63,327 bases of DNA from a virus. The notes below the pieces were generated by a model. The model saw only the letters and a list, made by a program, of their open reading frames with translations. It made no database searches and had not been told where the DNA came from. The stretch lies in IMG/VR virus record IMGVR_UViG_3300034523_000087. The stretch is one strand, 5' to 3'. Made by a program: the position numbers and the translations under genes. Positions 15,566 through 63,327 of the stretch are shown in pieces. How positions within the stretch are numbered: position 1 is the first letter of the stretch; every line of letters starts with the position of its first letter.

Positions 15566-15598
15566 GCCGGGTTCCTTTGCGGTTTGGTTGAACGCGAT

Positions 15599-15628
15599 GA
15601 ATGTAGCACTGAAACGTTCAACGTGACA
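15599..15628 (-). promoter_or_regulatory. candidate sigma70-type promoter for the leftward genes
   Basis: Minus strand TTGTCA-N18-TACATT about 35 nt upstream of ATG 15565; by-eye match only. Confidence 0.3.
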
Positions 15629-15665
15629 ACCTTATGGGTTGGTGGTTTTATTTTGAAACTGCTTC

Positions 15666-15766
15666 GATGGCCCTGCGGTTTGGTTTTAAATACCCGTAGG
15701 AGCATGAATTTCGCGGTTTTGTTTTAGATAGCCCTGCGGTTTGGTTTTAGATGGCCATGGGAGCGT
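15666..15766 (+). repeat. two tandem ~60-bp direct repeats in the divergent early control region
   Basis: GATGGCCCTGCGGTTTGGTTTTAAATACCCGTAGGAGCATG versus GATAGCCCTGCGGTTTGGTTTTAGATGGCCATGGGAGCGTG; partial copies at 15574..15590 and 15711..15729. Confidence 0.8.
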
Positions 15767-15933: not shown

Positions 15934-16164
15934 ATGACCTTGCTCGCTCGCTACAAGACCTTCGTTTCGGTTCTCAACCGTGTGCTCGCTCTCAAGTTCA
16001 GCCTCGGCCTGATCATATTCTGCATCACCTACGTCGGCATCAGTGCCTTTGGCTTCTATGCCTTGTGGTTCACCTACGGCTGGTGGTGCGTACCCATCCT
16101 CGCTGGCGCTACCGTGGTCGTCTACTACACGCAGCGCTTCTTCATCGACGCCATCTTCATCTGA
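15934..16164 (+). CDS. small membrane protein (76 aa)
   Basis: Internal ATG of track ORF 15751..16164 with GGAG 9 nt upstream; two hydrophobic helices (LGLIIFCITYVGISAFGFYALWF, WWCVPILAGATVVVYY). Confidence 0.6.
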   Translation: MTLLARYKTFVSVLNRVLALKFSLGLIIFCITYVGISAFGFYALWFTYGWWCVPILAGATVVVYYTQRFFIDAIFI

Positions 16165-16232
16165 CCTACCGTGCGCGCTGCGGAGCAGCGCGCTCTCTGT
16201 CTCTACGCATTCATTCACTTCGAGGATCTACC

Positions 16233-16514
16233 ATGTCTACTTTCGCTGCTCTGAAGAACCTGGGTTCGGCCATCGTCTCCGACATCGCTGCTGGCGCACG
16301 CGCGACCGCGGCTGCAACTGGCTCGGCCTACGAGTCGGTCAGCGCCAAGGTCGCGCACAAGCGCGGCGAGCGCCAGATCATCAACGAGTTCCGCAATATG
16401 CTGAACGAGCATCCCGGCGAGCTGCTGGCTGCGATGCGCAGCATTCAGGATCAGCTCGCCCAGCCGACCAAGCCTGCACGCAAGCCTCGCGCTCGCAAGG
16501 CGGCTGCACAATGA
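16233..16514 (+). CDS. hypothetical early protein (93 aa)
   Basis: Internal ATG of track ORF 16065..16514 with GAGGA RBS; ATGA-coupled to the next gene. Confidence 0.65.
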   Translation: MSTFAALKNLGSAIVSDIAAGARATAAATGSAYESVSAKVAHKRGERQIINEFRNMLNEHPGELLAAMRSIQDQLAQPTKPARKPRARKAAAQ

Positions 16515-16708
16515 GCCAGTCGCAGGTCAACGAGTTCCTGGCTCTGCTCCAGGCCAACCGCCAGCTGATGGCGCAGCTGTCCGAAGCATTCGGCACTGCG
16601 CTTGAAATGGCCGACCACCACATGCCGAGCGCGTCGCGGCACATGGCTCGCATCAACGACGAGCTGCTGGCCGCAGTGCATCGCATCGAGAATCCATCGC
16701 AGGTCTGA
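16511..16708 (+). CDS. hypothetical early protein (65 aa)
   Basis: Internal ATG (MSQSQVNEF...) of track ORF 16043..16708; followed by terminator. Confidence 0.6.
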   Translation: MSQSQVNEFLALLQANRQLMAQLSEAFGTALEMADHHMPSASRHMARINDELLAAVHRIENPSQV

Positions 16709-16714
16709 CGACGA

Positions 16715-16742
16715 GGGCGCACCGGGAGGTGCGCCCTTTTTG
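16715..16742 (+). terminator. intrinsic terminator
   Basis: GGGCGCACC-GGGA-GGTGCGCCC-TTTTT. Confidence 0.85.
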
Positions 16743-16783
16743 TCGTTGTGGCAATTCCGCCACCTTATATAGGACTCTGTACC

Positions 16784-17575
16784 ATGACCTACATCACCGA
16801 TCTGCTCGATTCCAAGTCCCCGGCTGCACTGGCTGCTCTGCGTTCCACCGCGAACAGCTGCCTGATGCGTGCCGTCAATCAGGCACTGAAGCTGGCGCGC
16901 ATGCAACTGCGTCATGTTGGTCGCGGCATCGACGGTGCCAACGACCTGCGTGCCATGGCTGACGCTGCGAAGGCTCGCGCTCAGCAGCTGGACAGCGCCG
17001 GACGGGACAGTATCACTTCCGAGGAAGTCATCCTGCGCAACTTCCGCCTGTACTACGCCATCGCCACTCGGCTGGAGGATCGCGACAGCGAGTACGAGCG
17101 TGCGATGACCGTCGACCAGGCATTCGAATTCGTGACCACTCCGCGCGACAGCAGCAAGCTGTCGCAGTCCGCCGAGCTGGCTGCGTTGTCGAAGATCTCC
17201 GGTATGTCGCCTGAAGACATCCTGAAGATGCGCGACCTCGACGCTCGCCGGTACGCGGACTCGGCCAAGGATGCGCAGCCGCTGGCTCGTGTCATCCTCG
17301 ACGACATCCCGCACAACGGTGTCAGCGAGGACGAGCTGTTCCTCGAACTCCCGGTCGAGCAGCAGTTCCAGACCTTCGCCAAGGCCACTGAGGCCGCGGT
17401 GGTGCAGCTGCAACGCGACACGCAGCGTGCTGCTCGCTTCCTCGAAAGCCCGGTGCGTGCGCTGCGTGACCTCGCGTTCAGCGACGTGACCGTGAGCAAG
17501 GCCGATGCGGACTCCCTGGAGAAACAGCTGGAGCACTTCATCGTCACCCACAAGTCCGAACTGGAATTCATGTAA
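16784..17575 (+). CDS. hypothetical early protein (263 aa)
   Basis: Track ORF 16748..17575; ATG 16784 lies after the terminator and has an AGGA RBS; followed by terminator. Confidence 0.75.
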   Translation: MTYITDLLDSKSPAALAALRSTANSCLMRAVNQALKLARMQLRHVGRGIDGANDLRAMADAAKARAQQLDSAGRDSITSEEVILRNFRLYYAIATRLEDRDSEYERAMTVDQAFEFVTTPRDSSKLSQSAELAALSKISGMSPEDILKMRDLDARRYADSAKDAQPLARVILDDIPHNGVSEDELFLELPVEQQFQTFAKATEAAVVQLQRDTQRAARFLESPVRALRDLAFSDVTVSKADADSLEKQLEHFIVTHKSELEFM

Positions 17576-17580
17576 ACCCT

Positions 17581-17612
17581 GGCGCTCGACTCTTCGGAGT
17601 CGAGCGCCTTTT
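17581..17612 (+). terminator. intrinsic terminator
   Basis: GGCGCTCGACTC-TTCG-GAGTCGAGCGCC-TTTT. Confidence 0.85.
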
Positions 17613-17651
17613 CCGCGTTCTACCCTCAACCACCAACCGCGCCTGGGCGCT

Positions 17652-18068
17652 ATGGACATCACTATGGACATCATCAAAAGCAGCACCAACGAAGTCGACA
17701 CCGACGCCGTGATGGAAGAACTCCACAACATCATGGCCAGCTACGCCGAGCGCGGCATATTCCTGTCGCTCTACTTCACCACCAACATCGAGATCGTCAA
17801 CAAGGACGGCAACGATTACGGCTTCCGTGCTGCACGCGGCATGGTCAGCGTACCGGGCTGGGTGCATGGCGGTGGTATCGGCGCTGTCCTGAGCGCTATG
17901 GGTGAAGGCGTCGAGTTCACCGACAACCCGGTCACCCTGGTACTGCGTGCTGCTCAGCACGCCGCGGCGCACCAACAACTGATCACCGAGCACATGAATC
18001 AGGTGGGCGAAATCGGCCTGATCCAGCTTGTGGATAACTCCAAGTTGGACGTGGTGAAAATCGACTGA
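17652..18068 (+). CDS. hypothetical acidic early protein (138 aa)
   Basis: Internal ATG of track ORF 17505..18068; followed by a GC-rich hairpin. Confidence 0.65.
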   Translation: MDITMDIIKSSTNEVDTDAVMEELHNIMASYAERGIFLSLYFTTNIEIVNKDGNDYGFRAARGMVSVPGWVHGGGIGAVLSAMGEGVEFTDNPVTLVLRAAQHAAAHQQLITEHMNQVGEIGLIQLVDNSKLDVVKID

Positions 18069-18082
18069 TTTCCACACGTGTG

Positions 18083-18122
18083 TGAGGGGAGCGGGGAGGG
18101 CCGACCCGCCCCCTTCTCCCCT
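18083..18122 (+). terminator. long GC-rich hairpin at the left edge of R1 (weak U-tract)
   Basis: GAGGGGAGCGGGGAGGG-CCGA-CCCGCCCCCTTCTCCCCTC, then CACCCTTTCTG. Confidence 0.5.
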
Positions 18123-18244
18123 CCACCCTTTCTGTATCGATCGCTAACCTAAGTGGTTGTTTCTTGAAACCAATTAGCTTTTTCTATCGCTGTAACGATT
18201 TCGTTCCAAACAGGATGAGACTGACTCTCAACAACCGTCACGAT

Positions 18245-18281
18245 GTTACGAAATTCCGTCCACCGACGAAAATTTCGTAAC
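18245..18281. other. inverted repeat GTTACGAAATT-N15-AATTTCGTAAC
   Basis: 11-bp perfect arms built from two inverted iterons. Confidence 0.85.
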
Positions 18282-18336
18282 ACGCTCCAGCCCAGGCAGC
18301 ACTAGGGGCACAGAGCTTTCTGTTACGATGTTACGA

Positions 18337-18400
18337 TCTTTTCTTCTTTATTCCACTACAGAAAAAAATAAATAAGTAATAGATATAGTTAATAAGTACA
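18337..18400. other. AT-rich core of R1
   Basis: CTTTTCTTCTTTATTCCACTACAGAAAAAAATAAATAAGTAATAGATATAGTTAATAAGTACA in an otherwise GC-rich genome. Confidence 0.85.
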
Positions 18401-18473
18401 TAGGGGCCATATGTACATGCTATCTGTAGCGGAATATCACCAAACTTCGTAACATTCGTGACAAAACCGGCTG

Positions 18474-18700
18474 AAACCCGCGTGGCACTAAGGCTAGAGG
18501 CCTGTTACGAAATTTTTTGAGATCGTGACAATCGTGACAAAATTTCCGCCCCGATCTGCCTCAAACCCGCGTGGCACTAAGGCTCCAGGCTGTCACGAAA
18601 TTTTTTGAAGATCGTGACAAAACCTCTCCCTCACTCGGCGCAAAGCCGCGTGGCACTAAGGCTCCAGACTGTCACGAAATTTTCTATGCGTTTTCCGTCA
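18474..18700 (+). promoter_or_regulatory. three tandem ~80-89-bp units, each carrying the conserved box CCGCGTGGCACTAAGGCTCCAG..TGTYACGAAATTTT
   Basis: GTGGCAC at 18482, 18571 and 18650; units end with TGA(A)GATCGTGACAA; all point toward gene 18747. Confidence 0.6.
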
Positions 18701-18746
18701 ATCCGTGACCAAATCATCCATTTCAGTCATCCACAGGAGCCTGGAA

Positions 18747-18950
18747 ATGCGCGTCCGCGACGTTCTGGTATTCGCTTTTTGCGTCCTCTTCGCCTTCGCC
18801 ACCATGACGGTCTTCGTCTATGCCCCCGCAAAGGCCAAAAAGGCGCGTTTCGAGGCATGTTCGGCCCAAGGTGGGGTGTTGGTATACACCCAGGCCGAAA
18901 CCCCTCTATGCGTGAAATCTGACGCCCTCCTGCCCATCCCTAACTATTAG
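18747..18950 (+). CDS. small secreted or membrane-anchored protein (67 aa)
   Basis: Internal ATG of track ORF 18705..18950 with AGGAG RBS; N-terminal hydrophobic segment VLVFAFCVLFAFATMTVFVYA. Confidence 0.6.
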   Translation: MRVRDVLVFAFCVLFAFATMTVFVYAPAKAKKARFEACSAQGGVLVYTQAETPLCVKSDALLPIPNY

Positions 18951-18962
18951 GAGATTGCCCCC

Positions 18963-19289
18963 ATGTTCGTCGACGCTCTGGCCTTCGGTTTCATGGCTGC
19001 CATCGGCATCTTCATTCTGTTGTGGCGTCTGCCTCGCATTCTCGTCCTGCATCTGCTGGGTATGGGTTTCCTGCTCGACACGGCGTTCACCACCCTGGTG
19101 TTCTGGATGCACTGGGGCACGGCCATCGGCATGTTCGTCGCCACGATCGGCGGCCTGTTCGGGTCCGCCGGTATCAGTCTGGCCAAAGGCGTGCTTGGCT
19201 CGATCGACTTCAAGACCAAGCAGTACAAACCCGGTTGGTTCGGTGATCGTCGTCCGCCCGAGTACAAGACCGCACCGCCGGCCAACTGA
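18963..19289 (+). CDS. polytopic membrane protein (108 aa)
   Basis: Track ORF, AGGAG RBS; three to four hydrophobic helices. Confidence 0.75.
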   Translation: MFVDALAFGFMAAIGIFILLWRLPRILVLHLLGMGFLLDTAFTTLVFWMHWGTAIGMFVATIGGLFGSAGISLAKGVLGSIDFKTKQYKPGWFGDRRPPEYKTAPPAN

Positions 19290-19292
19290 GTA

Positions 19293-19340
19293 CCCACTCA
19301 CCCACTCACCCACTCACCCACTCACCCGCTTACTCACCCT
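19293..19340. repeat. octamer tandem repeat (CCCACTCA)x4 plus two degenerate units
   Basis: Perfect units at 19293, 19301, 19309 and 19317; lies in the intergenic gap before the pentapeptide-repeat gene. Confidence 0.9.
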
Positions 19341-19374
19341 CCCCACGACCAAACCTTGCTGCCAGGAGCACGCC

Positions 19375-20466
19375 ATGCCGTCCTTCGCCGATTACCCCAT
19401 GCCTACCAAGCACAGACGCTTGCTCACCAAAGTCGAGATATCGAAAGCATTCGAAGCCGATCTGGACGACCGCCTCCCGGAAGTGAGTGCCTTGGCTATG
19501 ACCAGAACCTACGCAGACTATGGACTGCGTGGCACGTCCAGCTATGACTCGTACGTGAACGGTTTCATCTTCGACCAATCCAATGCTTCCGACGCTGTTC
19601 CGTACATCGACTCGAAGGCTCGACTCGCCAAAGCCAGGACGCAATGCCATGGCGTGTTCGACAAACACGGGTTCGACAAACACGTGTTCAGTCTGGCCCT
19701 GGTTCGTCACAGCGCCGACCCTACCACCCTCATGAAGCCTTCCAGAAGCCAACTCGATCGACTCATGTGCTACAGCCAGTTCACCAGCTGTTTCTTCGAT
19801 GGCTGCCATTTCCAGAACATCCACATGGTCGATGCAACGTTCACGAATTGCGTTTTCTTCGACTGCTCGTTCATCAGATGCGTCGGTTACCGTGCCAAGT
19901 TCATCAACTGCATTTTCCTCGGCACGCTTTTCCACGAAGGCACATGGGCGAACGCCAAATTCAACGGTTGCAAAATGTACGAAGTACGCTTCCGTCTATC
20001 GATAGATCCCACTCCCATGTCGGAGATACAGCTCAACTACGTTTCCTTCTACATGTCGAAGCTCGTAAATGTGACCTTCGAGGGCGACGTGTTCTACGAC
20101 ACCGTTTTCCCGGCGTCCTACCTGATCGGTGTGGCCCTGCAAGATGCCGATCTGACGAACGTGGATATGCGCACCGCGTTCCACGTCGATATCGAAAGCA
20201 TGCGCGGATGCAGGCTCAGCCGACCGAATCCGACGCAGTTCATGTCGCTGAACATCCACGACTACCCGATCATCTACACCTCGAACGTCATACAGATCGG
20301 TTGTCAGGCGTTCAGCATGCAGGAGCTACACCATTGCCTGAGCATGGAAGAGCAGGAGCTGTACCAGCTGTCTTCCGATGCGCCGGAATTGGCCAAAGCC
20401 CACCTGAAGTGGCTGCTCAAGACCATCGAGCGCTTCAAGCCCAAGCCGCTCCCGTACGAGTGCTGA
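19375..20466 (+). CDS. pentapeptide-repeat protein (363 aa)
   Basis: Internal ATG of track ORF 18955..20466 with AGGAG RBS. Residues ~131-272 show a strict 5-residue period with F/L/M at the centre (QFTSC FFDGC HFQNI HMVDA TFTNC VFFDC SFIRC ...), as in Qnr/MfpA-type beta-helices. Confidence 0.8.
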   Translation: MPSFADYPMPTKHRRLLTKVEISKAFEADLDDRLPEVSALAMTRTYADYGLRGTSSYDSYVNGFIFDQSNASDAVPYIDSKARLAKARTQCHGVFDKHGFDKHVFSLALVRHSADPTTLMKPSRSQLDRLMCYSQFTSCFFDGCHFQNIHMVDATFTNCVFFDCSFIRCVGYRAKFINCIFLGTLFHEGTWANAKFNGCKMYEVRFRLSIDPTPMSEIQLNYVSFYMSKLVNVTFEGDVFYDTVFPASYLIGVALQDADLTNVDMRTAFHVDIESMRGCRLSRPNPTQFMSLNIHDYPIIYTSNVIQIGCQAFSMQELHHCLSMEEQELYQLSSDAPELAKAHLKWLLKTIERFKPKPLPYEC

Positions 20467-21622: not shown

Positions 21623-22156
21623 ATGCACGTAAAGAAACGTGATCGGATTCTTGCCAATCAGACAGCCGCCGCGCAGAAGGTCTACGCGTGCGTGCCGATT
21701 TCCGAATCATGGCCAGCGCACAAGATCATGGCGCAGCTGAAGATCGATCTCGGCTCGTCCATGAGCGTCGCCGTCGTGCGAGGATGCCTGAGAGCACTGC
21801 ACGAGTCCGGGCTGATCCGACGGCCGAGCAGCGACCTGTACATCCGTGAGCCGGTCGTTACGGCTGCCGCTCAGCCCGCTCAGCCCGCTCAGCCCGTTCA
21901 ACCTGCTCAACCCACTGAACCCGCTCCGCCTGCTCAACCCGAACAACCGAAGGAATCCAGCATGTCCGCATCGATCGTTTCCCTGCTCAGACTCGCGAAC
22001 AGTCTCTCGACCCTGGCCGTCGAGATCGAAGAACGTCTGTCCGAAGCCGCAGCCGATATCGAGAAGATGGCCAGGCAGCTGGAAACCGAAACCGCCGCGT
22101 ATCGTGAGCAGCTGGCCAAACTGAAGCAGCTGCAAACCCTGCTGAAGGATCTGTAG
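21623..22156 (+). CDS. putative winged-helix DNA-binding protein with (A/P)Q-rich linker and coiled-coil tail
   Basis: Track ORF; the N-terminal ~75 aa look wHTH-like (SVAVVRGCLRALHESGLIRR); nine 9-bp repeats encode AQPAQPAQPVQPAQPTEPAPPAQPEQP; heptad-like C-terminus. Confidence 0.7.
   Translation: MHVKKRDRILANQTAAAQKVYACVPISESWPAHKIMAQLKIDLGSSMSVAVVRGCLRALHESGLIRRPSSDLYIREPVVTAAAQPAQPAQPVQPAQPTEPAPPAQPEQPKESSMSASIVSLLRLANSLSTLAVEIEERLSEAAADIEKMARQLETETAAYREQLAKLKQLQTLLKDL
21869..21949. repeat. nine 9-bp in-frame repeats (GCTCAGCCC-like)
   Basis: Encodes the AQP/EQP linker of gene 21623..22156. Confidence 0.85.
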
Positions 22157-30433: not shown

Positions 30434-32839
30434 ATGGACATCGCTTTCCTGTCCGCACCCGTGCCTCTGACGAAAACGTACAAGCAGCTTCGCGGACGCA
30501 TCGAAAAATCGAACTATCCGAACACCTCTTCCTTCACCTCGTACACCGAGCACCCGAAACGCCTCGAAGATTTCTACGCCGTCATTGTCGAGCATGCCAA
30601 GCAAGGGCACTGCTTGCTCAAGGGGCAGCTCAACCGCGACCTCGTTGAAGAATCCCGCGCCGGCTCTACCGAGAGCAACCAGGCAACTGAATGGGTCTGC
30701 CTGGACATCGACGGCCTTGAAGTCGAATCGCCCCAGGCATTCATGGATGCCATCGGCCTGGGCAGCGTGAGCTACATCGTCCAGTACAGTTCGAGCTATG
30801 GGGTGCTGGATGACCTGCTCCGCTGCCACATCTTCTGCTTGCTGGACAAGCCGGTCGCGGCACCGTTGCTGAAGCAATGGTTGATCGATGTCAATTTCAA
30901 CACCGAACTTCTGTGCAGCCAGATGACGCTGACGCCCAGCGGTAACGGATTGCATTGGCCGCTCGACATCACTACCTGCCAGAACGACAAGCTGCTGTAC
31001 ATCGCGCCGCCGAACCTGATCGGCGTGCCTGACCCTCTAGTCGCCGACGAGCGCTACCAGCTCGTGAAGAACAAGGGCACGCACTTCAAGCTCCCGAAGC
31101 AGATCGGTACCGTGAGCGCGAACCGCTCTCGTATCGACGATAAGGTCAACGAGCTGCGCCTGGAAGCAGGCATGCCCAAGCGCAAGGCGTCGAAGTACAA
31201 CAGCATCGGCCCTGTCGAGTTCGTGTCGAACCCGGACCAATGCACCGTCACCGGGATCAAGGAAGACCGTGGCTTCGTCTACCTGAACCTGAACGGCGGC
31301 GATAGCTGGGGTTACTACCACCCGGTTGACAAGCCGGACTTCATCTACAACTTCAAAGGGGAGCCGACTTACAAGACCAAGGATCTGGTCCCGGACTATT
31401 GGCACGACCAGCAACGCAAGGTCGAAGAGGCCGAAGAGTCTGGCGAAGTCATCACGCATCTAGCGTTCCGTGATTTCAACTCGGCGAAGTATTACAACGG
31501 CTGGTACGACCCGGACACGCGCGAACTGGTACTCAAGCAGGCAGCGAGCGAAAAGCAGCTGGCTGACTACATGGCAATCCAAGGCCGGGCGCTGAGCGAC
31601 CGAATCCCTATCTGGTCCTTGGAATTCCTGCCGTCTGAGGACTGGACCCTGAACCGTGAGTACGACCCGCCGGTCATCAACACGTTCGTGCAAAGCCCGT
31701 ACCTCCAGGCGAAGCGGCCGAGCAAAGTCCCGTCCGTACCGACGTTGATCGGCAGGATCATCCACCATGCGCTTGGCAGCGACCAGGCCGTAACCGACCG
31801 GTTCTATAACTGGCTCGCCGCGGTCATGCAGAAGCGCGTTGCCATAGGCACCAGCTGGGTTCTCAGCGGTACCCAGGGCACCGGTAAGGGACTCATCTGC
31901 AACAAGATCCTGCGCCCGATCCTGGGCGACACGTACGTGCAGCAGAAACGCATGGACGAGCTGGACGAGAAGTTCAACGATTTCATGGAGCAGTGCATTT
32001 TTCTGTTCGTTGACGAAGTGCAGCTATCTGAAATGCGCAACGGCCGCGCGCTCATGCAGCGAATCAAGAACCAGATCACCGAGGAACGCATCAGCATCCG
32101 GGGTATGCACCGCGCCGGGCAGATGATGACGAACCATGTGAATTGGATCTTCTGCACGAACATGCCGGACCCGATCTACCTGACCAGCGACGATCGTCGG
32201 TTCAACGTGGCACCGTTCCAACCGAACAAGCTGCTGATCACCGCAGAAGAGATCGAAGCGATCGAAGATGAACTTCAACAGTTCTGCGACTACCTGCTAA
32301 TGCGCGAAGTCGACTACGACCTGGCGCGCGCCGTGGTAATGACCGAGCAGCGTGAGCGCTTGATCAACACCAGCAGCACCAGCATCGAACTGGCGTGCGA
32401 CGCAGTGCGCCGTGGGGATCTTCAGTTCTTCTTGGACGAGCTGCCCAGCGATAGCCAGTCGTTTGTCCTGCCCGACACGATGCTGAAGCTGACGCAGTAC
32501 AAGCGTGCGCTTCGGGAGGTCATCGAACACGCGTCTACGGGCGGCAAAGGGGTAGGCCGTGACGTACTGCACACCCTCATGCGGTACGTGCTGCCGGACT
32601 GCCCAACGTCCAGCCACAAGTTCACGTCGCTGATCAAGCACCACGGCCTGTACGTCCAATCGCTTCGCATCGGCACGCGCACCACGCGCGGTGTCGAAGT
32701 GGATTGGGTCATCCCGGAAGGTGCGCTTGAACAGCTGGACGGCGTGGCCGACAAACCGGTCAACGACGATATCTCGCCGAAGACCAAAGCAGAACTCAAG
32801 AAGCACCTCAAGGGTGTAGCAGGAGGTAAGAAAGAATGA
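30434..32839 (+). CDS. bifunctional AEP primase-polymerase / SF3 (D5- or P4-alpha-like) helicase
   Basis: N-terminal AEP motifs WVCLDIDGL and TPSGNGLHWPL; C-terminal Walker A GTQGTGKG, Walker B FLFVDEV, motif C NWIFCTN. Confidence 0.9.
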   Translation: MDIAFLSAPVPLTKTYKQLRGRIEKSNYPNTSSFTSYTEHPKRLEDFYAVIVEHAKQGHCLLKGQLNRDLVEESRAGSTESNQATEWVCLDIDGLEVESPQAFMDAIGLGSVSYIVQYSSSYGVLDDLLRCHIFCLLDKPVAAPLLKQWLIDVNFNTELLCSQMTLTPSGNGLHWPLDITTCQNDKLLYIAPPNLIGVPDPLVADERYQLVKNKGTHFKLPKQIGTVSANRSRIDDKVNELRLEAGMPKRKASKYNSIGPVEFVSNPDQCTVTGIKEDRGFVYLNLNGGDSWGYYHPVDKPDFIYNFKGEPTYKTKDLVPDYWHDQQRKVEEAEESGEVITHLAFRDFNSAKYYNGWYDPDTRELVLKQAASEKQLADYMAIQGRALSDRIPIWSLEFLPSEDWTLNREYDPPVINTFVQSPYLQAKRPSKVPSVPTLIGRIIHHALGSDQAVTDRFYNWLAAVMQKRVAIGTSWVLSGTQGTGKGLICNKILRPILGDTYVQQKRMDELDEKFNDFMEQCIFLFVDEVQLSEMRNGRALMQRIKNQITEERISIRGMHRAGQMMTNHVNWIFCTNMPDPIYLTSDDRRFNVAPFQPNKLLITAEEIEAIEDELQQFCDYLLMREVDYDLARAVVMTEQRERLINTSSTSIELACDAVRRGDLQFFLDELPSDSQSFVLPDTMLKLTQYKRALREVIEHASTGGKGVGRDVLHTLMRYVLPDCPTSSHKFTSLIKHHGLYVQSLRIGTRTTRGVEVDWVIPEGALEQLDGVADKPVNDDISPKTKAELKKHLKGVAGGKKE

Positions 32840-39809: not shown

Positions 39810-40214
39810 ATGGCAGAGAAAAAACCTACAATCACCTTCAATCGCGATGCTGCGATCAAGGAGTTCCACAAGCTCTCCAAGCAGATCACTGACCTGAACG
39901 CGAAAGTCAAGGAACTGTCTTCGCTCAAGGCCAGCTTGGAAGACGAGCTGATCGAACACCTGAACATGGAACAGCTCGGCACCGTGACGTTGAAGAATGG
40001 GATGGGGGTCAAGCTCCAAGACTCCATAGTCCCGCAGGCCGAAGACTGGGACGCGTTCTACAAGTGGATGTCCCGGACCAAGAACTTCCAGATGCTCGAA
40101 CGTCGGTTGACGGTGACGGCGTACCGGGAGTTCCGCGAGAAGGGCAAGGAAGTCCCCGGCCTGCGTGACTTCACCAAGACCAAGGTCGGTCTGATCAATC
40201 CGCCGAAGAAGTAA
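39810..40214 (+). CDS. hypothetical coiled-coil protein (134 aa)
   Basis: Track ORF, GGGAG RBS; N-terminal coiled coil. Could be Gp157-like, but not verifiable here. Confidence 0.7.
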   Translation: MAEKKPTITFNRDAAIKEFHKLSKQITDLNAKVKELSSLKASLEDELIEHLNMEQLGTVTLKNGMGVKLQDSIVPQAEDWDAFYKWMSRTKNFQMLERRLTVTAYREFREKGKEVPGLRDFTKTKVGLINPPKK

Positions 40215-46212: not shown

Positions 46213-46440
46213 TCACTCCGGCAACGGGTACCTGGCCTTGATCTCTTCGACCTTAGCAATCCAGGCAGAGTAATCCGGCTCGACACCGGCTTTGATCGCG
46301 TCGAATTCAGCCTCGGTCTTGAGCGGGTCACTCTCCAATCGGTAAGCGTCCGCCCGTGCCGCGACCGCAGCATCGTGCGCAGCCTGCCGACGTTCTTCGG
46401 CCTGCTGCTCAGCAGTCTTCACCTTACTCCAGTCGATCAT
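46213..46440 (-). CDS. hypothetical protein, possible tail-fibre chaperone (75 aa)
   Basis: Last gene of the fibre cassette; ATGA coupling; function by position only. Confidence 0.6.
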   Translation of the reverse strand: MIDWSKVKTAEQQAEERRQAAHDAAVAARADAYRLESDPLKTEAEFDAIKAGVEPDYSAWIAKVEEIKARYPLPE

Positions 46441-46748
46441 TGCGGCAACTCCACCGGGCCATCGGCCTCGACCAGCAACGGTTCAGGGAAGCGGGCGGCG
46501 GCACTGGCATCGACGGGGAGCGGTAAACGCAGGGTCAGTTCCAACCGGCCAGAGCGCCGCAATACGGGGCCTTCAAACCACTCCGATTCAATAGCGTCAG
46601 ACGGTAGTTCACCGCCTTCCGGGAGCGGCGTGAAATCGAACTCTACACCGTTCACAGTGAGTACATCGCCAGCCCTGCTCAGTGACAGGCGCTCGTCGCT
46701 TCCCGGCAGCGGAGCAAACGGTGACAACTTGATGATCATCAGAACCAC
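46437..46748 (-). CDS. hypothetical protein, possible tail-fibre assembly factor (103 aa)
   Basis: Track ORF directly after the fibre gene; function by position only. Confidence 0.6.
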   Translation of the reverse strand: MVLMIIKLSPFAPLPGSDERLSLSRAGDVLTVNGVEFDFTPLPEGGELPSDAIESEWFEGPVLRRSGRLELTLRLPLPVDASAAARFPEPLLVEADGPVELPQ

Positions 46749-47302
46749 CTCCCCACAACCATAATGCTCAACCCGTTAGTACCAAGGTCTTCATTCAAGT
46801 AGAAAGTAACTTGGTCCCCGCCCATGTAGCCGCCCCTAACCCCCGCCGCAGCCGATGGCCAGCCGCTGAACGGTATCCAGTTGACGATGAGGCTATATGA
46901 GGATCCTCCGGCAAACTCAGCCGCCAACTGCACTGTGTTGGGCCCTGCTTGGTAGTTGCTACCAGACCCCGTGATTTGGCGTATGCAAATCTGAGTTCCA
47001 TCTGCAAACCGAACGAACTCACCATTCGCGTTGCTGCCACGTTGAATCACCGCCCCTGTCGGTATTCCGCTCGACTGCGAAACGGCGCCGAGAATGCTGT
47101 CTCGCGAGTACAAAGCCCCAGTTGAACCCAGGGCAGCTCTAATTGCAGCACTCCCAAGCCCAAGGGACGTGCGCGCGCCAGCGGCAGTTGCAGCGCCTGT
47201 GCCGCCATTGGTGATGGGTACGGTATCGCTGGTAGCGAACTGGGATAGGTTCCCGTTGCCTCCGCCGTTGTCGATTACCTTCAGAGGGATTGCGTCAGCC
47301 AT
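46739..47302 (-). CDS. tail fibre protein
   Basis: The N-terminal PITNGGTGAATAAGARTSLGLG motif is a common tail-fibre signature; lower GC than the flanks. Confidence 0.8.
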   Translation of the reverse strand: MADAIPLKVIDNGGGNGNLSQFATSDTVPITNGGTGAATAAGARTSLGLGSAAIRAALGSTGALYSRDSILGAVSQSSGIPTGAVIQRGSNANGEFVRFADGTQICIRQITGSGSNYQAGPNTVQLAAEFAGGSSYSLIVNWIPFSGWPSAAAGVRGGYMGGDQVTFYLNEDLGTNGLSIMVVGRWF

Positions 47303-47501
47303 TGGTCACCACCGGGATATTCAGCGAGCCGCCGGCAGCGAGTGCTACCGGCAGCATCTGGTTGGTGTTCAGCGGCACGCGAAGCGTACCACCGGCCCGC
47401 ATGTACACCAGCACGCCGAGAGGTACACCCAGCAGCGTGTCGCCGTCTGGCAGCTCACGAGGAAAGCCGCTGCCATGGACGAGGGGTTTACGCGCCGCCA
47501 T
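47295..47501 (-). CDS. hypothetical protein (68 aa)
   Basis: Track ORF within the fibre cassette. Confidence 0.55.
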   Translation of the reverse strand: MAARKPLVHGSGFPRELPDGDTLLGVPLGVLVYMRAGGTLRVPLNTNQMLPVALAAGGSLNIPVVTNG

Positions 47502-47509
47502 GGTTCACC

Positions 47510-48025
47510 TCACGCCAGCACGATCGGTTGCCGGCCGATCTCGACGTTGACCACGGTAGCGCTCACCGCGGTACCCAGGGGCTGCACGATCTGGCCAGTT
47601 CCAGTCGGCGGGGTAGCTACGCCGGCTCCGGGAGTGGTCGCGCTGAGCCACACGTTGCCGGGGGTCATCCCGGTGACCTGGGTGTTCGAACCTTCGAAGT
47701 ACACCGTCGCGTTCGCTGCGCTGGCCACGGCCGACAAAACGAAGCCGTGAGCCATCTTAGCGGTGCCGCCGGCGGCGTCAGCCTTGCGGACTTTGAACGC
47801 GCCAGCATCGGCCCACACGTTCACGTAATCACCCGCGGCCAGTGCCTCGGATGCTTCGATGATCGCGGTATCGGCCCCGATGCCAGAGGGCAGCACAGAG
47901 CTGTCCAAGCGGCCAGTCGAGTCGAGTGCAGGGATATCGCCGGCGTTACCAGCGCCCGACGAGACGACGGTCGCTTCGACCTCGGTCGGGAAACCCCCTT
48001 GGTTGGAAAGGTACTTGTCTGCCAT
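47510..48025 (-). CDS. tail fibre-like protein (171 aa)
   Basis: GDIPALDSTGRLDSSVLP motif typical of fibre N-termini; Ala/Gly/Thr-rich. Confidence 0.75.
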   Translation of the reverse strand: MADKYLSNQGGFPTEVEATVVSSGAGNAGDIPALDSTGRLDSSVLPSGIGADTAIIEASEALAAGDYVNVWADAGAFKVRKADAAGGTAKMAHGFVLSAVASAANATVYFEGSNTQVTGMTPGNVWLSATTPGAGVATPPTGTGQIVQPLGTAVSATVVNVEIGRQPIVLA

Positions 48026-48026
48026 G

Positions 48027-48704
48027 TCACACCTCCAGCGTGATCGCCACGCCTATGTCTATGAAAAGGGTAGTCGGGTCGAGCGCGAAGCCTACGATCA
48101 ACGAGAACAACGCGCCAGGGGGAACAGTCTGCGTGAGGTTGCCATCCTGGCCGAGGAACACAGCTCCGGGCGTCCACGCCCACCCGGAGTGTTGCACTTC
48201 ACCGAGACGCTGCACATCCACTGTGCCGCCAGGGGATGCCGCATTCAGCGACAGCCCGAGTGTGTTGATACGGTTGATCATCGTCGAGCAGTCAGCGTAC
48301 ACGACCTGATCGGCATCGATAGGTGCCACCATGCGATGGCCGGACATCGGGGTAAGCGCCACCTTCTGGATGATCGCGCCGCCGGCTGGTCCAGGCTCGC
48401 CCTTGTCACCCTTTCGCCCAGGCTGCCCAGCCAGGACAACGAACGCCGCCGAGCGCAGATCCTGAACCTGCTGCGCCCCAGGCTGGATCATCACTTCGGT
48501 CACTGCCTGGTCCGGCGGCAGCACCATGTCGGTGTACTCCAGCTGCGAAGCTCGGCGCGCCAACGGCAGGACGATCTCCATGTCCGGGTCACGTACAAGA
48601 AGAGCCTGGTGCCGCTGGCGCACAACGAGAGCGGTGCGGGCAGCGTTGCGCACAGCCAGGCACTGGCCGACCTGGCGGACGACTAGAGCCTGACCTGCGT
48701 TCAT
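48027..48704 (-). CDS. collagen-like tail fibre protein (225 aa)
   Basis: G-X-Y run GQPGRKGDKGEPGPAGG (nt 48378..48428), followed by a globular C-terminal domain. Confidence 0.75.
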   Translation of the reverse strand: MNAGQALVVRQVGQCLAVRNAARTALVVRQRHQALLVRDPDMEIVLPLARRASQLEYTDMVLPPDQAVTEVMIQPGAQQVQDLRSAAFVVLAGQPGRKGDKGEPGPAGGAIIQKVALTPMSGHRMVAPIDADQVVYADCSTMINRINTLGLSLNAASPGGTVDVQRLGEVQHSGWAWTPGAVFLGQDGNLTQTVPPGALFSLIVGFALDPTTLFIDIGVAITLEV

Positions 48705-49294
48705 TTCGCTACCTCGGCGGTTACGGTCACGCGACCGGAGGCCACCGGGTAGACCACGGTGAGGTCGGCGGGGTCGTACAGTTCGAGGTCGTACAACGCC
48801 TTGTTCCAGTCCAGGGTGGCGGTCACGTCAGCACCGACGACGATGCTTATGGTGCTGGTCGGAATGTCGATCACGACCCGGCCATCAGTCGTGCTCCCGG
48901 TCAGCAGAGCATCGGCGTCACCCGGCGTGCGCCGGATAGCGAAGCGTGCGGCGAGGCCAGTGAGGTCCGCGGGGGTATAGAAGACGATGGTACCGGCCCC
49001 GCCGAACGCCTTGAGCCCGATCCCGTTCACGTCATTGAGTTCGAGGCTGTCCGGGGTCAAGACCTTGGCCAGGTAGAACTGCCCAGGCTGGGTATTCAGC
49101 TCCGGCGGGGCCTTCACGCTCTGCACCTCGAATGGCCAACCATCGGACAGGCCGTGACCGGGCACCGTCAACACGACGGGAGCGGCGGCCGTAGCGCCGG
49201 TTATGGGCCGGTACAGCTTGACCGGATCGGCCCAGCGGAAGGCGAATTCGAACGTCTTCCCCTGGAGAATGTGCAAATCGATAGAGCAAGTCAT
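48701..49294 (-). CDS. virion beta-sandwich protein, first gene of the fibre cassette (197 aa)
   Basis: Track ORF with a strong AGGAGGG RBS; ATGA coupling to the next gene. Confidence 0.75.
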   Translation of the reverse strand: MTCSIDLHILQGKTFEFAFRWADPVKLYRPITGATAAAPVVLTVPGHGLSDGWPFEVQSVKAPPELNTQPGQFYLAKVLTPDSLELNDVNGIGLKAFGGAGTIVFYTPADLTGLAARFAIRRTPGDADALLTGSTTDGRVVIDIPTSTISIVVGADVTATLDWNKALYDLELYDPADLTVVYPVASGRVTVTAEVAK

Positions 49295-49397
49295 GGTGCG
49301 CCCTCCTGTGAGCTGCGGAAAGTATGCCAGCCGGCCCCAGGCTGCGCCACGCGGCGTGGAAGCGTGGTCAGGGGTACGGTTGTGGCCGTAGACCCGG

Positions 49398-49425
49398 AAA
49401 AACGCACCACGGGCCTGTTTGGTGC
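49398..49425 (-). terminator. intrinsic-terminator-like hairpin between R2 and the fibre cassette
   Basis: Minus strand GCACCAAACAGGCCCGTGGTGCGTTTTTCC. Confidence 0.5.
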
Positions 49426-49483
49426 CTTAAAAGCCGTATCGATCGCATTGATAGTCCAGAGCACAACTATCAATTGTCACGAT

Positions 49484-49520
49484 GTTACGAAATTTTCGGA
49501 ACAGGCCAAAATTTCGTAAC
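49484..49520. other. inverted repeat GTTACGAAATTTT-N11-AAAATTTCGTAAC
   Basis: 13-bp perfect arms; arms conserved with R1 while the loop sequence differs. Confidence 0.85.
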
Positions 49521-49544
49521 ACGCTGGAGCCTTAGTGCCACAAG
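49508..49544 (-). promoter_or_regulatory. copy of the conserved box on the minus strand
   Basis: Minus strand reads CTTGTGGCACTAAGGCTCCAGCGTGTTACGAAATTTT; points toward the fibre cassette. Confidence 0.55.
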
Positions 49545-49576
49545 GGTTCTAGCGATTTCTGTCACGATGTTACGAT

Positions 49577-49640
49577 CTTTACTACTTTATTCCACTACAG
49601 AAAAAATAAATAAGATATATAAAAGATATAGATACTTAGG
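49577..49640. other. AT-rich core of R2
   Basis: CTTTACTACTTTATTCCACTACAGAAAAAATAAATAAGATATATAAAAGATATAGATACTTAGG. Confidence 0.85.
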
Positions 49641-49710
49641 GCCGCCAGGGGTACAGGGTAGTATGTACGTGCTCCAGCTACGAAAAGTTTTCCCGTGACA
49701 ATCGTGACAA

Positions 49711-49734
49711 TCGTGACAGCCTAGTGCCACGCGG
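49711..49734 (-). promoter_or_regulatory. shortened copy of the conserved box
   Basis: Minus strand reads CCGCGTGGCACTAGGCTGTCACGA (lacks the CCAGNCT segment). Confidence 0.45.
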
Positions 49735-49860
49735 CCTCCAGCTGTCACGATCTGTCACGATGTTACGATGTTGGTCCCGGCGACACCCCTCTTGTTGAGA
49801 ACGATTCTCGAAATATCGATTATGGTTAAATTCTCCAGGGCGATATTTCCGCCCCGGAAC

Positions 49861-56214: not shown

Positions 56215-56262
56215 GGTCCTGCGCTAAGTCGGCGGTGAGATTCCGCCTACTATAGCGCAGGA
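56215..56262 (-). promoter_or_regulatory. nested intercistronic hairpin covering the RBS of the giant gene
   Basis: 11-bp arms GTCCTGCGCTA/TAGCGCAGGAC enclose the inner GGCGG/CCGCC stem; on the mRNA the 3' arm contains the AGGA that precedes ATG 56211. Confidence 0.6.
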
Positions 56263-62793: not shown

Positions 62794-63327
62794 CAGTTCC
62801 TCCGATGGATTCTGCGGGAGGAAACCCCGACCTCCACTTCGATGTTGTCCAGATCCGCGAACGAAGCGTCTTCGACTTCCAGGCGAAGCCTCCAGTGGCG
62901 AGCAGCGACGCCTTTCGCAACACCGTCCGGCGTGCGGAACTCAGGACTTTCGCCGGCAAGGGTGTACACGCGCTCTTCGCCGTCGTCACCAGTGATACGG
63001 AAGTACACCCGTCCGTCAGTAGTGATGCCAGCGTACGCGCTGGACAGGCGTTTCGTGTTCTTGACGCCGTAGTCGTCAGCGCCGAAGTCGATCAACGCGC
63101 GCAGCATTTCCCCGTCGTCAGTCTCACCTTCGAGGCGATACAGGCCGTCGTTCTTGATCCCGAACGTGTCATTACCCACGCGGGCAAAGCCGGTGAAGCT
63201 GAAATTCTGGTAGGTGGTCAGCGCGCCGGTCAGCACGTTGACGGCGTACTGGAGCGCAGTCTCCCGCGCGGTGCTGATGTTCGAGTAGACCGCCAGCCCG
63301 TCGCGCATCATCAGTTCGATGGTGCTT
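62793..63327 (-). CDS. C-terminal part of the junction-spanning ~620-aa virion protein (same gene as 1..1455)
   Basis: Track ORF 62793..63311 begins at an internal Met; the frame stays open to 63327, and 63201..63327 duplicates 1..127. Total 1863 nt is divisible by 3. Confidence 0.8.
   Translation of the reverse strand, partial: STIELMMRDGLAVYSNISTARETALQYAVNVLTGALTTYQNFSFTGFARVGNDTFGIKNDGLYRLEGETDDGEMLRALIDFGADDYGVKNTKRLSSAYAGITTDGRVYFRITGDDGEERVYTLAGESPEFRTPDGVAKGVAARHWRLRLEVEDASFADLDNIEVEVGVSSRRIHRRN
63201..63327. repeat. terminal overlap, identical to 1..127
   Basis: Same 127-nt string as the window start; lies inside a coding region. Confidence 0.95.

Follow-up and report, generated by a model that had tools for sequence, protein, structure and literature searches.

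A GC-rich box fused to iterons in two paralogous control regions of a Kochitakasuvirus genome, a possible recognition site for a phage factor acting with the host RNA polymerase

In phages T4 and lambda, small phage proteins redirect the RNA polymerase of the host, and an orientation-dependent conserved box, lying near the -35 element or in its place, gives the specificity. The origins of T7 and T4 consist of a promoter plus an unwinding element, and the alpha primase-helicase of satellite phage P4 binds octamer iterons at two separated loci, ori and crr. Here we analyse a 22-bp GC-rich box and the TGTYACGA iteron that follows it, which occur together in two regions, R1 and R2, of the phage genome in IMG/VR record IMGVR_UViG_3300034523_000087 (63,327 nt; this whole stretch is the window). 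The phage belongs to the genus Kochitakasuvirus, with Pseudomonas phages KPP25, phiR18, CRPAP1904 and YMC17/07/R4900a, to which it is 86-92% identical around R1 (queried stretch 17800-19400). KPP25-like phages are under development for Pseudomonas aeruginosa therapy, and to our knowledge nothing is known of their expression timing or of where their replication starts. We tentatively favour, with rather less than even confidence, the view that the boxes are promoter-proximal recognition sites for a phage factor acting with the host polymerase, and the iterons operators. By analogy with the promoter-plus-AT-rich modules of T7 and T4, the same regions may also serve as replication origins.

The 18-mer CCGCGTGGCACTAAGGCT occurs exactly at 18478, 18567 and 18646 on the plus strand, at spacings of 89 and 79 nt, and with two mismatches at 49545->49528 on the minus strand. 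These four matches compare with 0.08 expected genome-wide, and none of 100 shuffled sequences reached four. The three tandem units and the near-identical minus-strand copy in R2 claimed by the original prediction, an earlier annotation of this DNA, are thus borne out, and the shortened copy that it placed at 49734->49711 is present. In a whole-genome search the core GCACTARGSC had no occurrence outside the R1 and R2 boxes. Every box is followed, after two variable bases, by the iteron TGTYACGA, which has 23 genomic matches where 4.5 are expected, all but one of them within 18244-18677 and 49475-49768; when one mismatch is allowed, 26 of 66 matches fall within the 1,244 bases of R1 plus R2. In units A and B, as had also been noted, an inverted iteron lies downstream, 16-17 nt beyond the box iteron; the forward-reverse pairs there are spaced 22-23 bp. 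The elements of the two regions are as follows.

18069-18746, plus strand: R1 control region, with the early operon to its left and the middle operon to its right; GC content drops to 0.46-0.51
18080-18126, plus strand: strong hairpin at the end of the early operon (-33.3 kcal/mol, z = -3.46, 0 of 200 shuffles as stable), a probable terminator with a weak U tract
18216-18230, unstranded: palindrome TGAGACTGACTCTCA, a single genomic occurrence, identical in a relative (60% identity in gp29) though its surroundings have diverged; likely a separate protein-binding site, distinct from boxes and iterons
18232-18367, plus strand: core module of R1, with inverted iteron pair, degenerate box, tandem iteron pair and start of the AT island
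18291-18313, plus strand: degenerate box CCCAGGCAGCACTAGGGGCACAG, missing from the original prediction, at the same position as an intact forward box GCCGCGGCGCACTAAGCCTCC of the relative
18337-18436, unstranded: AT-rich island of R1, flanked by the inverted repeat TATTCCACTACAGA / TCTGTAGCGGAATA and containing a rightward TATAGT
18437-18464, minus strand: tandem iteron pair TCGTAACATTCGTGACA on the right side of the AT island
18474-18546, plus strand: unit A, with box 18478-18499 (1-nt insertion variant CTAGAGG), iteron 18503-18510, T tract, and inverted iterons 18523-18530 and 18532-18539
18563-18624, plus strand: unit B, with box 18567-18588, iteron 18591-18598, T tract and inverted iteron 18612-18619
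18642-18685, plus strand: unit C, with box 18646-18667 and iteron 18670-18677, its end 64 nt from the ATG at 18747
49295-49860, minus strand: R2 control region, between the gene of a 2116-aa virion protein (ends 49861) and the tail-fibre operon (ATG 49294)
49341-49354, minus strand: CCGCGTGGCGCAGC, proposed as a degenerate box; conserved in the genus, without the CACTAAGGCT core and without an iteron
49508-49548, minus strand: R2a, full box plus iteron AACCCTTGTGGCACTAAGGCTCCAGCGTGTTACGAAATTTT, 214 nt upstream of the fibre-operon ATG and 88% complementary to unit B
49577-49638, unstranded: AT-rich island of R2, oriented on the genome strand like that of R1
49693-49734, minus strand: R2b, short box CCGCGTGGCACTAGGCTG (the copy CCGCGTGGCACTAGGCTGTCACGA at 49734->49711) plus three tandem iterons, with a 12-nt deletion relative to the full copy of the relative
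49743-49768, plus strand: three tandem iterons at the far edge of R2

One proposed copy does not hold as a box. The sequence CCGCGTGGCGCAGC does lie at 49354->49341, as the original prediction had it, but its word GCGTGGCR is at chance level in the genome (12 found, 13 expected), and we reject it for this and for its lack of core and iteron.

Variable positions were counted in the R1 and R2 alignment of five genomes. The boxes vary at 4 of 78 positions and the iteron blocks at 4 of 94, against 21 of 42 in the spacers between units and 16 of 61 in the leader before the ATG. The left part of R1, core included, is nearly invariant (10 variable positions in 272), the core module at 18232-18367 varies at 2 of 109 positions, and the unit B box at none of 26; mean column identity over R1 is 96%. 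Such low variation beside diverged spacers argues that boxes and iterons are constrained elements, under purifying selection and functional. An exact 14-mer scan of IMG/VR, JGI metagenomes and GTDB genomes returned chance singletons alone, a gapped box-plus-iteron pattern had multiple copies in the same collections only in KPP25, and protein-anchored locus searches in IMG/VR gave KPP25 as sole match. The element is limited to the genus Kochitakasuvirus plus one close outgroup. It belongs to a module of a known kind, a phage control region built from repeats, whose composition and layout are unusual and for which no cognate protein can be recognised. The module has no prior description in the accessible literature, where papers on the genus make no mention of promoters, polymerases or termini and the box sequence is found in no relevant paper.

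The boxes do not form a free-standing array. The segment 18232-18367 is a direct repeat of 49471-49606 (136 nt, 79% identical), and gapped similarity extends across the AT island to about 18430 and 49690; given this direct repeat, the boxes are parts of two paralogous regions of ~570-680 nt. The common core of ~136-200 nt contains, in plus-strand order, an inverted iteron pair, a box, a tandem iteron pair and an AT island starting with CTTTATTCCACTACAGAAAAAATAAATAAG. The AT-island word CTACAGAAAAAATAAATA is retained in R2 and in the relative.

This relative, the outgroup, was found by three-protein searches in the Logan assemblies SRR26885031-33. Its identity to the window phage is 60% in gp29, 74% in gp32 and 62% in gp88, and its contigs cover the left 300 nt of R1 (L188), the right 200 nt of R1 (L192) and the whole of R2 (L193). 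It retains the iterons, and the boxes in part. The forward box GCCGCGGCGCACTAAGCCTCC lies left of its R1 AT island, and upstream in its R2 a full-length GGGGCACTAGGGCTGGAG stands where the window genome has the short copy, so R2b is a derivative of it by a 12-nt deletion. In both lineages no other element stands between the first middle gene and a box with one iteron, whose distance to the ATG is 64 nt here and 20 nt in the relative.

The relative also bears on box orientation. In the window genome all five intact copies, plus the degenerate one read forward, face the flanking genes. In the relative three of four boxes do so, which makes 9 of 10 over all copies in both lineages; the claim that the boxes always face the downstream genes therefore holds for every intact copy here but describes a bias, not a rule. 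Comparison of the exceptional box (L193 375-430) with R2a (window 49505-49552) indicates an inversion in place of ~25 nt: the flanks are collinear, and the core GCACTAAG(G/C)CTC alone aligns as its reverse complement (11 of 12). This inversion may have been mediated by the CTCCAG/CTGGAG hexamers, which are found repeatedly around the boxes. The core is direct at R1 and R2, and in this genus only the R2a box is turned toward the fibre genes. Because the core is direct at both loci, the box in its R2 copy would be expected to point away from the fibre genes, which is the case in the relative. The flip of R2a in place restores co-orientation, and we take it as the best single argument for a role that depends on orientation and is tied to gene direction.

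We considered whether the repeats could lack any regulatory function, being instead recombination or module-junction sites, or sites related to packaging, whose similarity gene conversion between R1 and R2 would maintain. The two regions do evolve in concert, the relative's two cores resembling each other more than they resemble the cores of the window genome; the divergence from KPP25 changes across R1 (gp30 97% identical, gp31 76%); and the fibre module that adjoins R2 is common to unrelated siphophages, with an exchanged fibre gene. However, selection is concentrated on boxes and iterons, whereas gene conversion alone would homogenise the spacers too, box orientation is biased, and two packaging sites 31 kb apart make no sense. 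We regard this as highly improbable, and give it the least credence of all the explanations weighed here.

Which enzyme could read the boxes? Pfam searches with 63 proteins, catalytic-motif scans and PDB sequence searches found no RNA polymerase and no sigma factor, so that the earlier statement that no cognate enzyme is recognisable holds. No protein has the motif set of single-subunit RNA polymerases (R...K.......YG, HD[SA], [TD]..GR), and motif B is absent in the 12 proteins scanned for it (11 large open reading frames plus gp06). The 2116-aa virion protein was rejected as a hidden polymerase, having no Pfam or PDB sequence match, no DxDGD and no T7 or N4 motif set. Textbook intrinsic terminators lie at ~16715, ~17590, ~27995, ~34440 and ~46160 on the plus strand and at ~8320 on the minus strand, inside operons and at their ends. 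As the terminators are of host type and no phage polymerase is recognisable, the host RNA polymerase probably transcribes the phage throughout.

Bases 1-127 are an exact repeat of bases 63201-63327, within a coding gene. This 127-bp overlap is no terminal repeat but an artefact of assembling a circular or permuted genome; the window is therefore a complete circular phage genome with a unit length of 63,200 bp. Mapping of the KPP25 proteins onto it gave the following layout, in which the genes on both sides of each control region are co-oriented, rightward around R1 and leftward around R2.

15565 leftwards across the map origin to 49861, minus strand: structural genes
15934-18068, plus strand: early operon of five genes, gp26-30-like
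18747-46127, plus strand: middle/replication operon of 27 kb
49294-46216, minus strand: tail-fibre operon, downstream of R2

Since a strong terminator hairpin precedes R1, the 27-kb operon needs a promoter or an anti-terminator there. Scans for sigma-70 promoters found one site each in R1 and R2, against ~0.8 in shuffled sequences, and none in or after the box on the gene strand; the best manual reading of the box is GTGGCA-N20-GAAATT, against a required spacing of 16-18 nt. As neither region holds a sigma-70-type promoter beyond chance, there is room for one that depends on a factor.

According to the mechanism that we propose, a single phage control module would be present twice, as the paralogues R1 and R2. 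Its 22-bp GC-rich box and the TGTYACGA iteron would form a site in double-stranded DNA that a sequence-specific phage protein, acting with the host RNA polymerase, would recognise in one orientation. Either this factor would create a promoter without a -35 element, in the manner of MotA at T4 middle promoters or of a divergent phage sigma, or it would join the polymerase where the operon begins, comparable to the loading of lambda Q at its binding element. The operon faced by the box would be switched on after expression of the early operon. The iterons, which overlap or follow the boxes and form inverted pairs of 22-23 bp, would be operators for the same or a second protein and would tune or shut off transcription; with an iteron fused to every box, a promoter-plus-operator unit is a reasonable model. 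We infer all three of its main steps: binding of the box by a phage protein, the start or modification of the host polymerase there, and the timing. A bolder version seems improbable to us, namely that the boxes are promoters of a novel type at which the host polymerase, reprogrammed by an unrecognised genus-restricted phage protein (a sigma substitute or appropriator without detectable similarity to those known), reads the 22-bp GC-rich element without -35 or -10, the same element also firing two antipodal replication origins.

The closest parallels to a factor-dependent site of this kind would be the T4 middle promoters, with their MotA box and AsiA-remodelled sigma-70, and the lambda Q element, where likewise a phage without a polymerase of its own redirects that of the host from a box at the operon head. 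However, no homologue of MotA, AsiA or Q was detected. At 22 bp the box exceeds theirs in length, it is rich in GC and joined to an iteron, a convincing -10 at constant distance from it is wanting, and only two loci carry it. Promoters of the T7, T3, K11 and gh-1 type are similar in being ~20-23 bp long, nearly invariant, strand-specific and present in tandem copies before the first gene. The core GCACTAAGG also seems to resemble the CACTA(A/T)AGG that surrounds the start site of T3/K11-type promoters. However, the window genome has no single-subunit polymerase, its terminators are of host type, and the box core is confined to R1 and R2 instead of standing ahead of most transcription units.

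Several observations weigh against a promoter function. The boxes are confined to two loci, one serving replication genes and the other tail fibres, a combination that is odd for genes of one temporal class, and both regions show the full anatomy of an iteron-type origin. In the relative, the gene-proximal box (CCCGCGTGG-GCTCCACGTGTTACGA, 20 nt from the ATG of the first middle gene) lacks the CACTAAG core, and the box at the R2a position is reversed, facing away from the fibre genes. No box follows the internal terminators at ~16.7, 17.6, 28.0 and 34.4 kb, unlike what a true promoter class would show; hence polymerase started at R1 reads through or is modified, or other promoters exist. The box has no AT-rich melting element, the GAAATT after the iteron being the sole and weak candidate, and no -10-like, GG-N10-GC or hairpin feature that would offer a recognisable opening of the DNA. 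None of the DNA-binding candidates (a 134-aa protein at 39810-40214 and the zinc ribbons) can be linked to the sites. Finally, the rightward TATAGT in the R1 AT island could be the real promoter, which would place the boxes in a transcribed leader. The promoter/operator interpretation of the original prediction thus stands in that the sites are specific, constrained, orientation-biased, gene-proximal and iteron-fused, and is weakened by their restriction to two origin-like loci, the flipped box, the loss of the core and the want of an opening element.

TATAGT occurs four times in the genome, and three of the copies are intergenic and co-oriented with genes: 8287-8292 and 56249-56254 on the minus strand, and 18384-18389 on the plus strand, in the R1 AT island. 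By their sequence and position these three are possible -10 elements of host-type promoters.

A transcript started at the AT-island word would carry the boxes in its leader, where they might act as RNA, as terminating, pausing, processing or anti-terminating hairpins of the nut or put kind; two loci oriented with their operons would then parallel lambda nutL and nutR. The arms CGUGGCA...UGUYACG can pair in a 7-bp stem in which Y gives G-C or G-U, and even the short copy retains both arms. The strand bias of the boxes, the upstream rightward TATAGT and the need for read-through at the terminators inside the operons also fit. However, in all copies of this genome the stem encloses a 14-nt loop and is no more stable than in shuffled sequences (z -0.74 to +0.67), AAA separates the stem from the T tract, and a scan for intrinsic terminators found none at the boxes. 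Nor is the stem conserved in the relative, where other pairings occur (one of them a 7-bp stem that the gene-proximal copy can form around 3 nt) and one box lies on the opposite strand. Rfam 15 gave no match at gathering score across the whole window, and no tRNA or tmRNA was found. On the fold statistics and the lack of conservation we reject a hairpin or terminator function, and think it very unlikely that the boxes act as RNA at all. The same hairpin values set the box apart from the N4 virion-polymerase hairpin promoters, which have a 5-7-bp stem with a 3-nt loop. Points in common with N4 are a podovirus nature, a giant virion protein (here of 2116 aa, without polymerase motifs), a box of imperfect dyad symmetry and, in the relative's gene-proximal copy, a possible loop of that size.

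The iterons also recall a host regulator. The published subsites of the Pseudomonas enhancer-binding protein CbrB, an activator of sigma-54 promoters, are TGTTAC and GTAACA, 20-25 bp apart centre to centre (PMC6296734), and the iteron hexamers TGTTAC/GTAACA are identical to them, with the forward-reverse pairs of units A and B spaced 22-23 bp. Together with the perfect TGGCAC at the head of the box, which would be a -24 element, this striking coincidence could point to promoters resembling the CbrB upstream activating sequence/sigma-54 promoters of Pseudomonas, which would couple phage expression to the carbon status of the host. A further GG-N10-GC word, TGGCATACTTTCCGCA, lies at 49329-49314 on the minus strand ahead of the first gene of the fibre operon. 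However, the box (TGGCAC-TAAGG-CTCCA) has CC instead of GC at -13/-12, two boxes in the relative (GCGCAC, CAGCAC) have lost the GG, no intergenic GG-N10-GC site scored well, and the subsites are followed by no valid sigma-54 promoter. About half of the iterons read TGTCAC, and the conserved CGA extends beyond the CbrB hexamer. The layout is also wrong, with the palindromes either downstream of the putative -24 element or merely 46-56 bp upstream of it. TGGCATACTTTCCGCA lies directly before the Shine-Dalgarno sequence, so that it would start transcription inside the latter, and although invariant in the genus it has a 1-nt insertion in the relative. The GAFTGA and ESELFGH motifs are absent in any frame and the AAA protein of the phage is of the CDC48/FtsH type, so that no phage-encoded sigma-54 activator was found, although an activator of the host may take this part. 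We reject sigma-54/CbrB as the promoter of these sites and keep it as a lead of low probability, slightly ahead of a role in RNA.

The main competitor of a phage-factor site is a replication origin. In this scenario, R1 and R2 would be two origins, or an origin and a cis-acting enhancer as in P4; an initiator, most plausibly the 801-aa primase-helicase (30434-32839), would bind the iterons, the AT island would unwind, and the boxes would be polar loading or priming signals like ssiA and ssiB of RSF1010, their co-orientation with genes reflecting co-directional replication and transcription. Each locus has a 60-100-nt AT island with short repeats in both orientations on each side, the standard anatomy of iteron origins, and in both lineages at least one box points into the island, an arrangement reminiscent of the T7 and T4 origins with their promoter and unwinding element. 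The genome-strand orientation of the core is equal at the two loci despite their opposite gene directions, which fits an orientation-independent core, and the cores lie 31,239 bp apart, or 49.4% of the 63,200-bp circle. The phage encodes its replisome, including the superfamily 3 (SF3) primase-helicase (DUF5906), beside which no further initiator can be recognised; among solved structures its helicase domain comes nearest to that of the NrS-1 primase-polymerase (8.6e-26). Proteins of this kind can act as initiators that bind the origin, the alpha protein of P4 being an example. The published recognition words of archaeo-eukaryotic primases, GTGA and GTGG, occur in the iteron and the box, though as mere 4-mers.

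Other features fit an origin poorly. The iterons are 8-9 bp apart and out of helical phase, a priming role leaves both the box directly before the first gene (in both lineages) and the R2a flip unexplained, the box hairpin, unlike ssi signals, is no more stable than shuffles, and GC skew tracks the gene strand only. Compared with P4 ori/crr and RSF1010 oriV, the likeness lies in 8-bp repeats, direct and inverted, at two loci, an AT island and a phage-encoded SF3 primase-helicase, and for RSF1010 also in polar ~40-nt signals that flank the unwinding region. The differences are that the helicase here is NrS-1-like and has no match in NCBIfam, which includes a P4 primase family model, that the box hairpin is not significant, and that boxes also stand directly before genes. 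An origin role is possible, if rather unlikely, and ranks below the promoter/operator reading, which we consider the single most likely; the two are compatible.

Two further loci touch on the origin question. The distant Aeromonas phage phiA008 (L186 2811-3227) has the same layout, with an AT island at the early/middle junction and its own 23-nt inverted repeat CCCTCTAGAGTACTTTTTTTCGA; the recurrence of the island favours an origin, whereas the lack of an R2 analogue does not, and this phage has no box and no TGTYACGA iteron. In the window genome, the intergenic stretch from which the late and early operons diverge (15575-15750) carries four copies of GCGGTTTGGTT(TTA[AG]AT). This cluster resembles TTTGGTTA, the sequence published as the site that the primase of NrS-1 PrimPol recognises. 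As another possible origin it counts against R1 and R2; the repeat is absent in the relative (L188 2100-2420).

Boxes and iterons are the strongest cis-acting signals of the genome and mark the two places where control must act. If a phage factor does steer the host polymerase to a GC-rich 22-bp element, this would be a new route of redirection and would give Pseudomonas engineering a compact orthogonal switch; should the regions be origins, they would be the first point of access to the way in which an NrS-1-type primase-helicase replicates a Pseudomonas phage. Under either reading the sites are well-defined DNA probes for their cognate proteins.

Candidates for the reprogramming factor are the early gp26-30-like proteins. 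The early proteins are ORFans, and gp29 has three homologous clusters among 5.8 billion proteins. Beyond these, Pfam yields no more than zinc ribbons, a pentapeptide-repeat protein, nucleases, a CDC48/FtsH-type AAA protein, the DUF5906 primase-helicase and a weak integrase-N-terminal-like/DUF7307 match in the 134-aa protein at 39810-40214. AlphaFold models of the gp29-like early protein (predicted local distance difference test, pLDDT, 41) and of the N-terminal domain of the gp37-like protein (pLDDT 40-60) were too poor for fold comparison. A 9-nt tandem repeat CCGCTCAGC at 21867-21947 encodes a PAQ-rich linker in a 177-aa protein (21623-22156); on its N-terminal side is a small helical domain, on its C-terminal side a long helix predicted with confidence. 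Judged by its sequence, the protein could be a dimeric DNA-binding protein.

R1 itself contains no convincing small open reading frame. The fibre module adjoining R2 (46216-49294, minus strand) has ~35% identical counterparts in Pseudomonas siphophages such as JBD68, MD8 and F10. Compared with KPP25, the fibre gene retains only its first 32 residues, so the module has been exchanged. Downstream of R1, ~6 copies of an 8-nt tandem repeat ACCCACTC lie at 19284-19339, in the leader of the pentapeptide-repeat protein gene (19375-20466).

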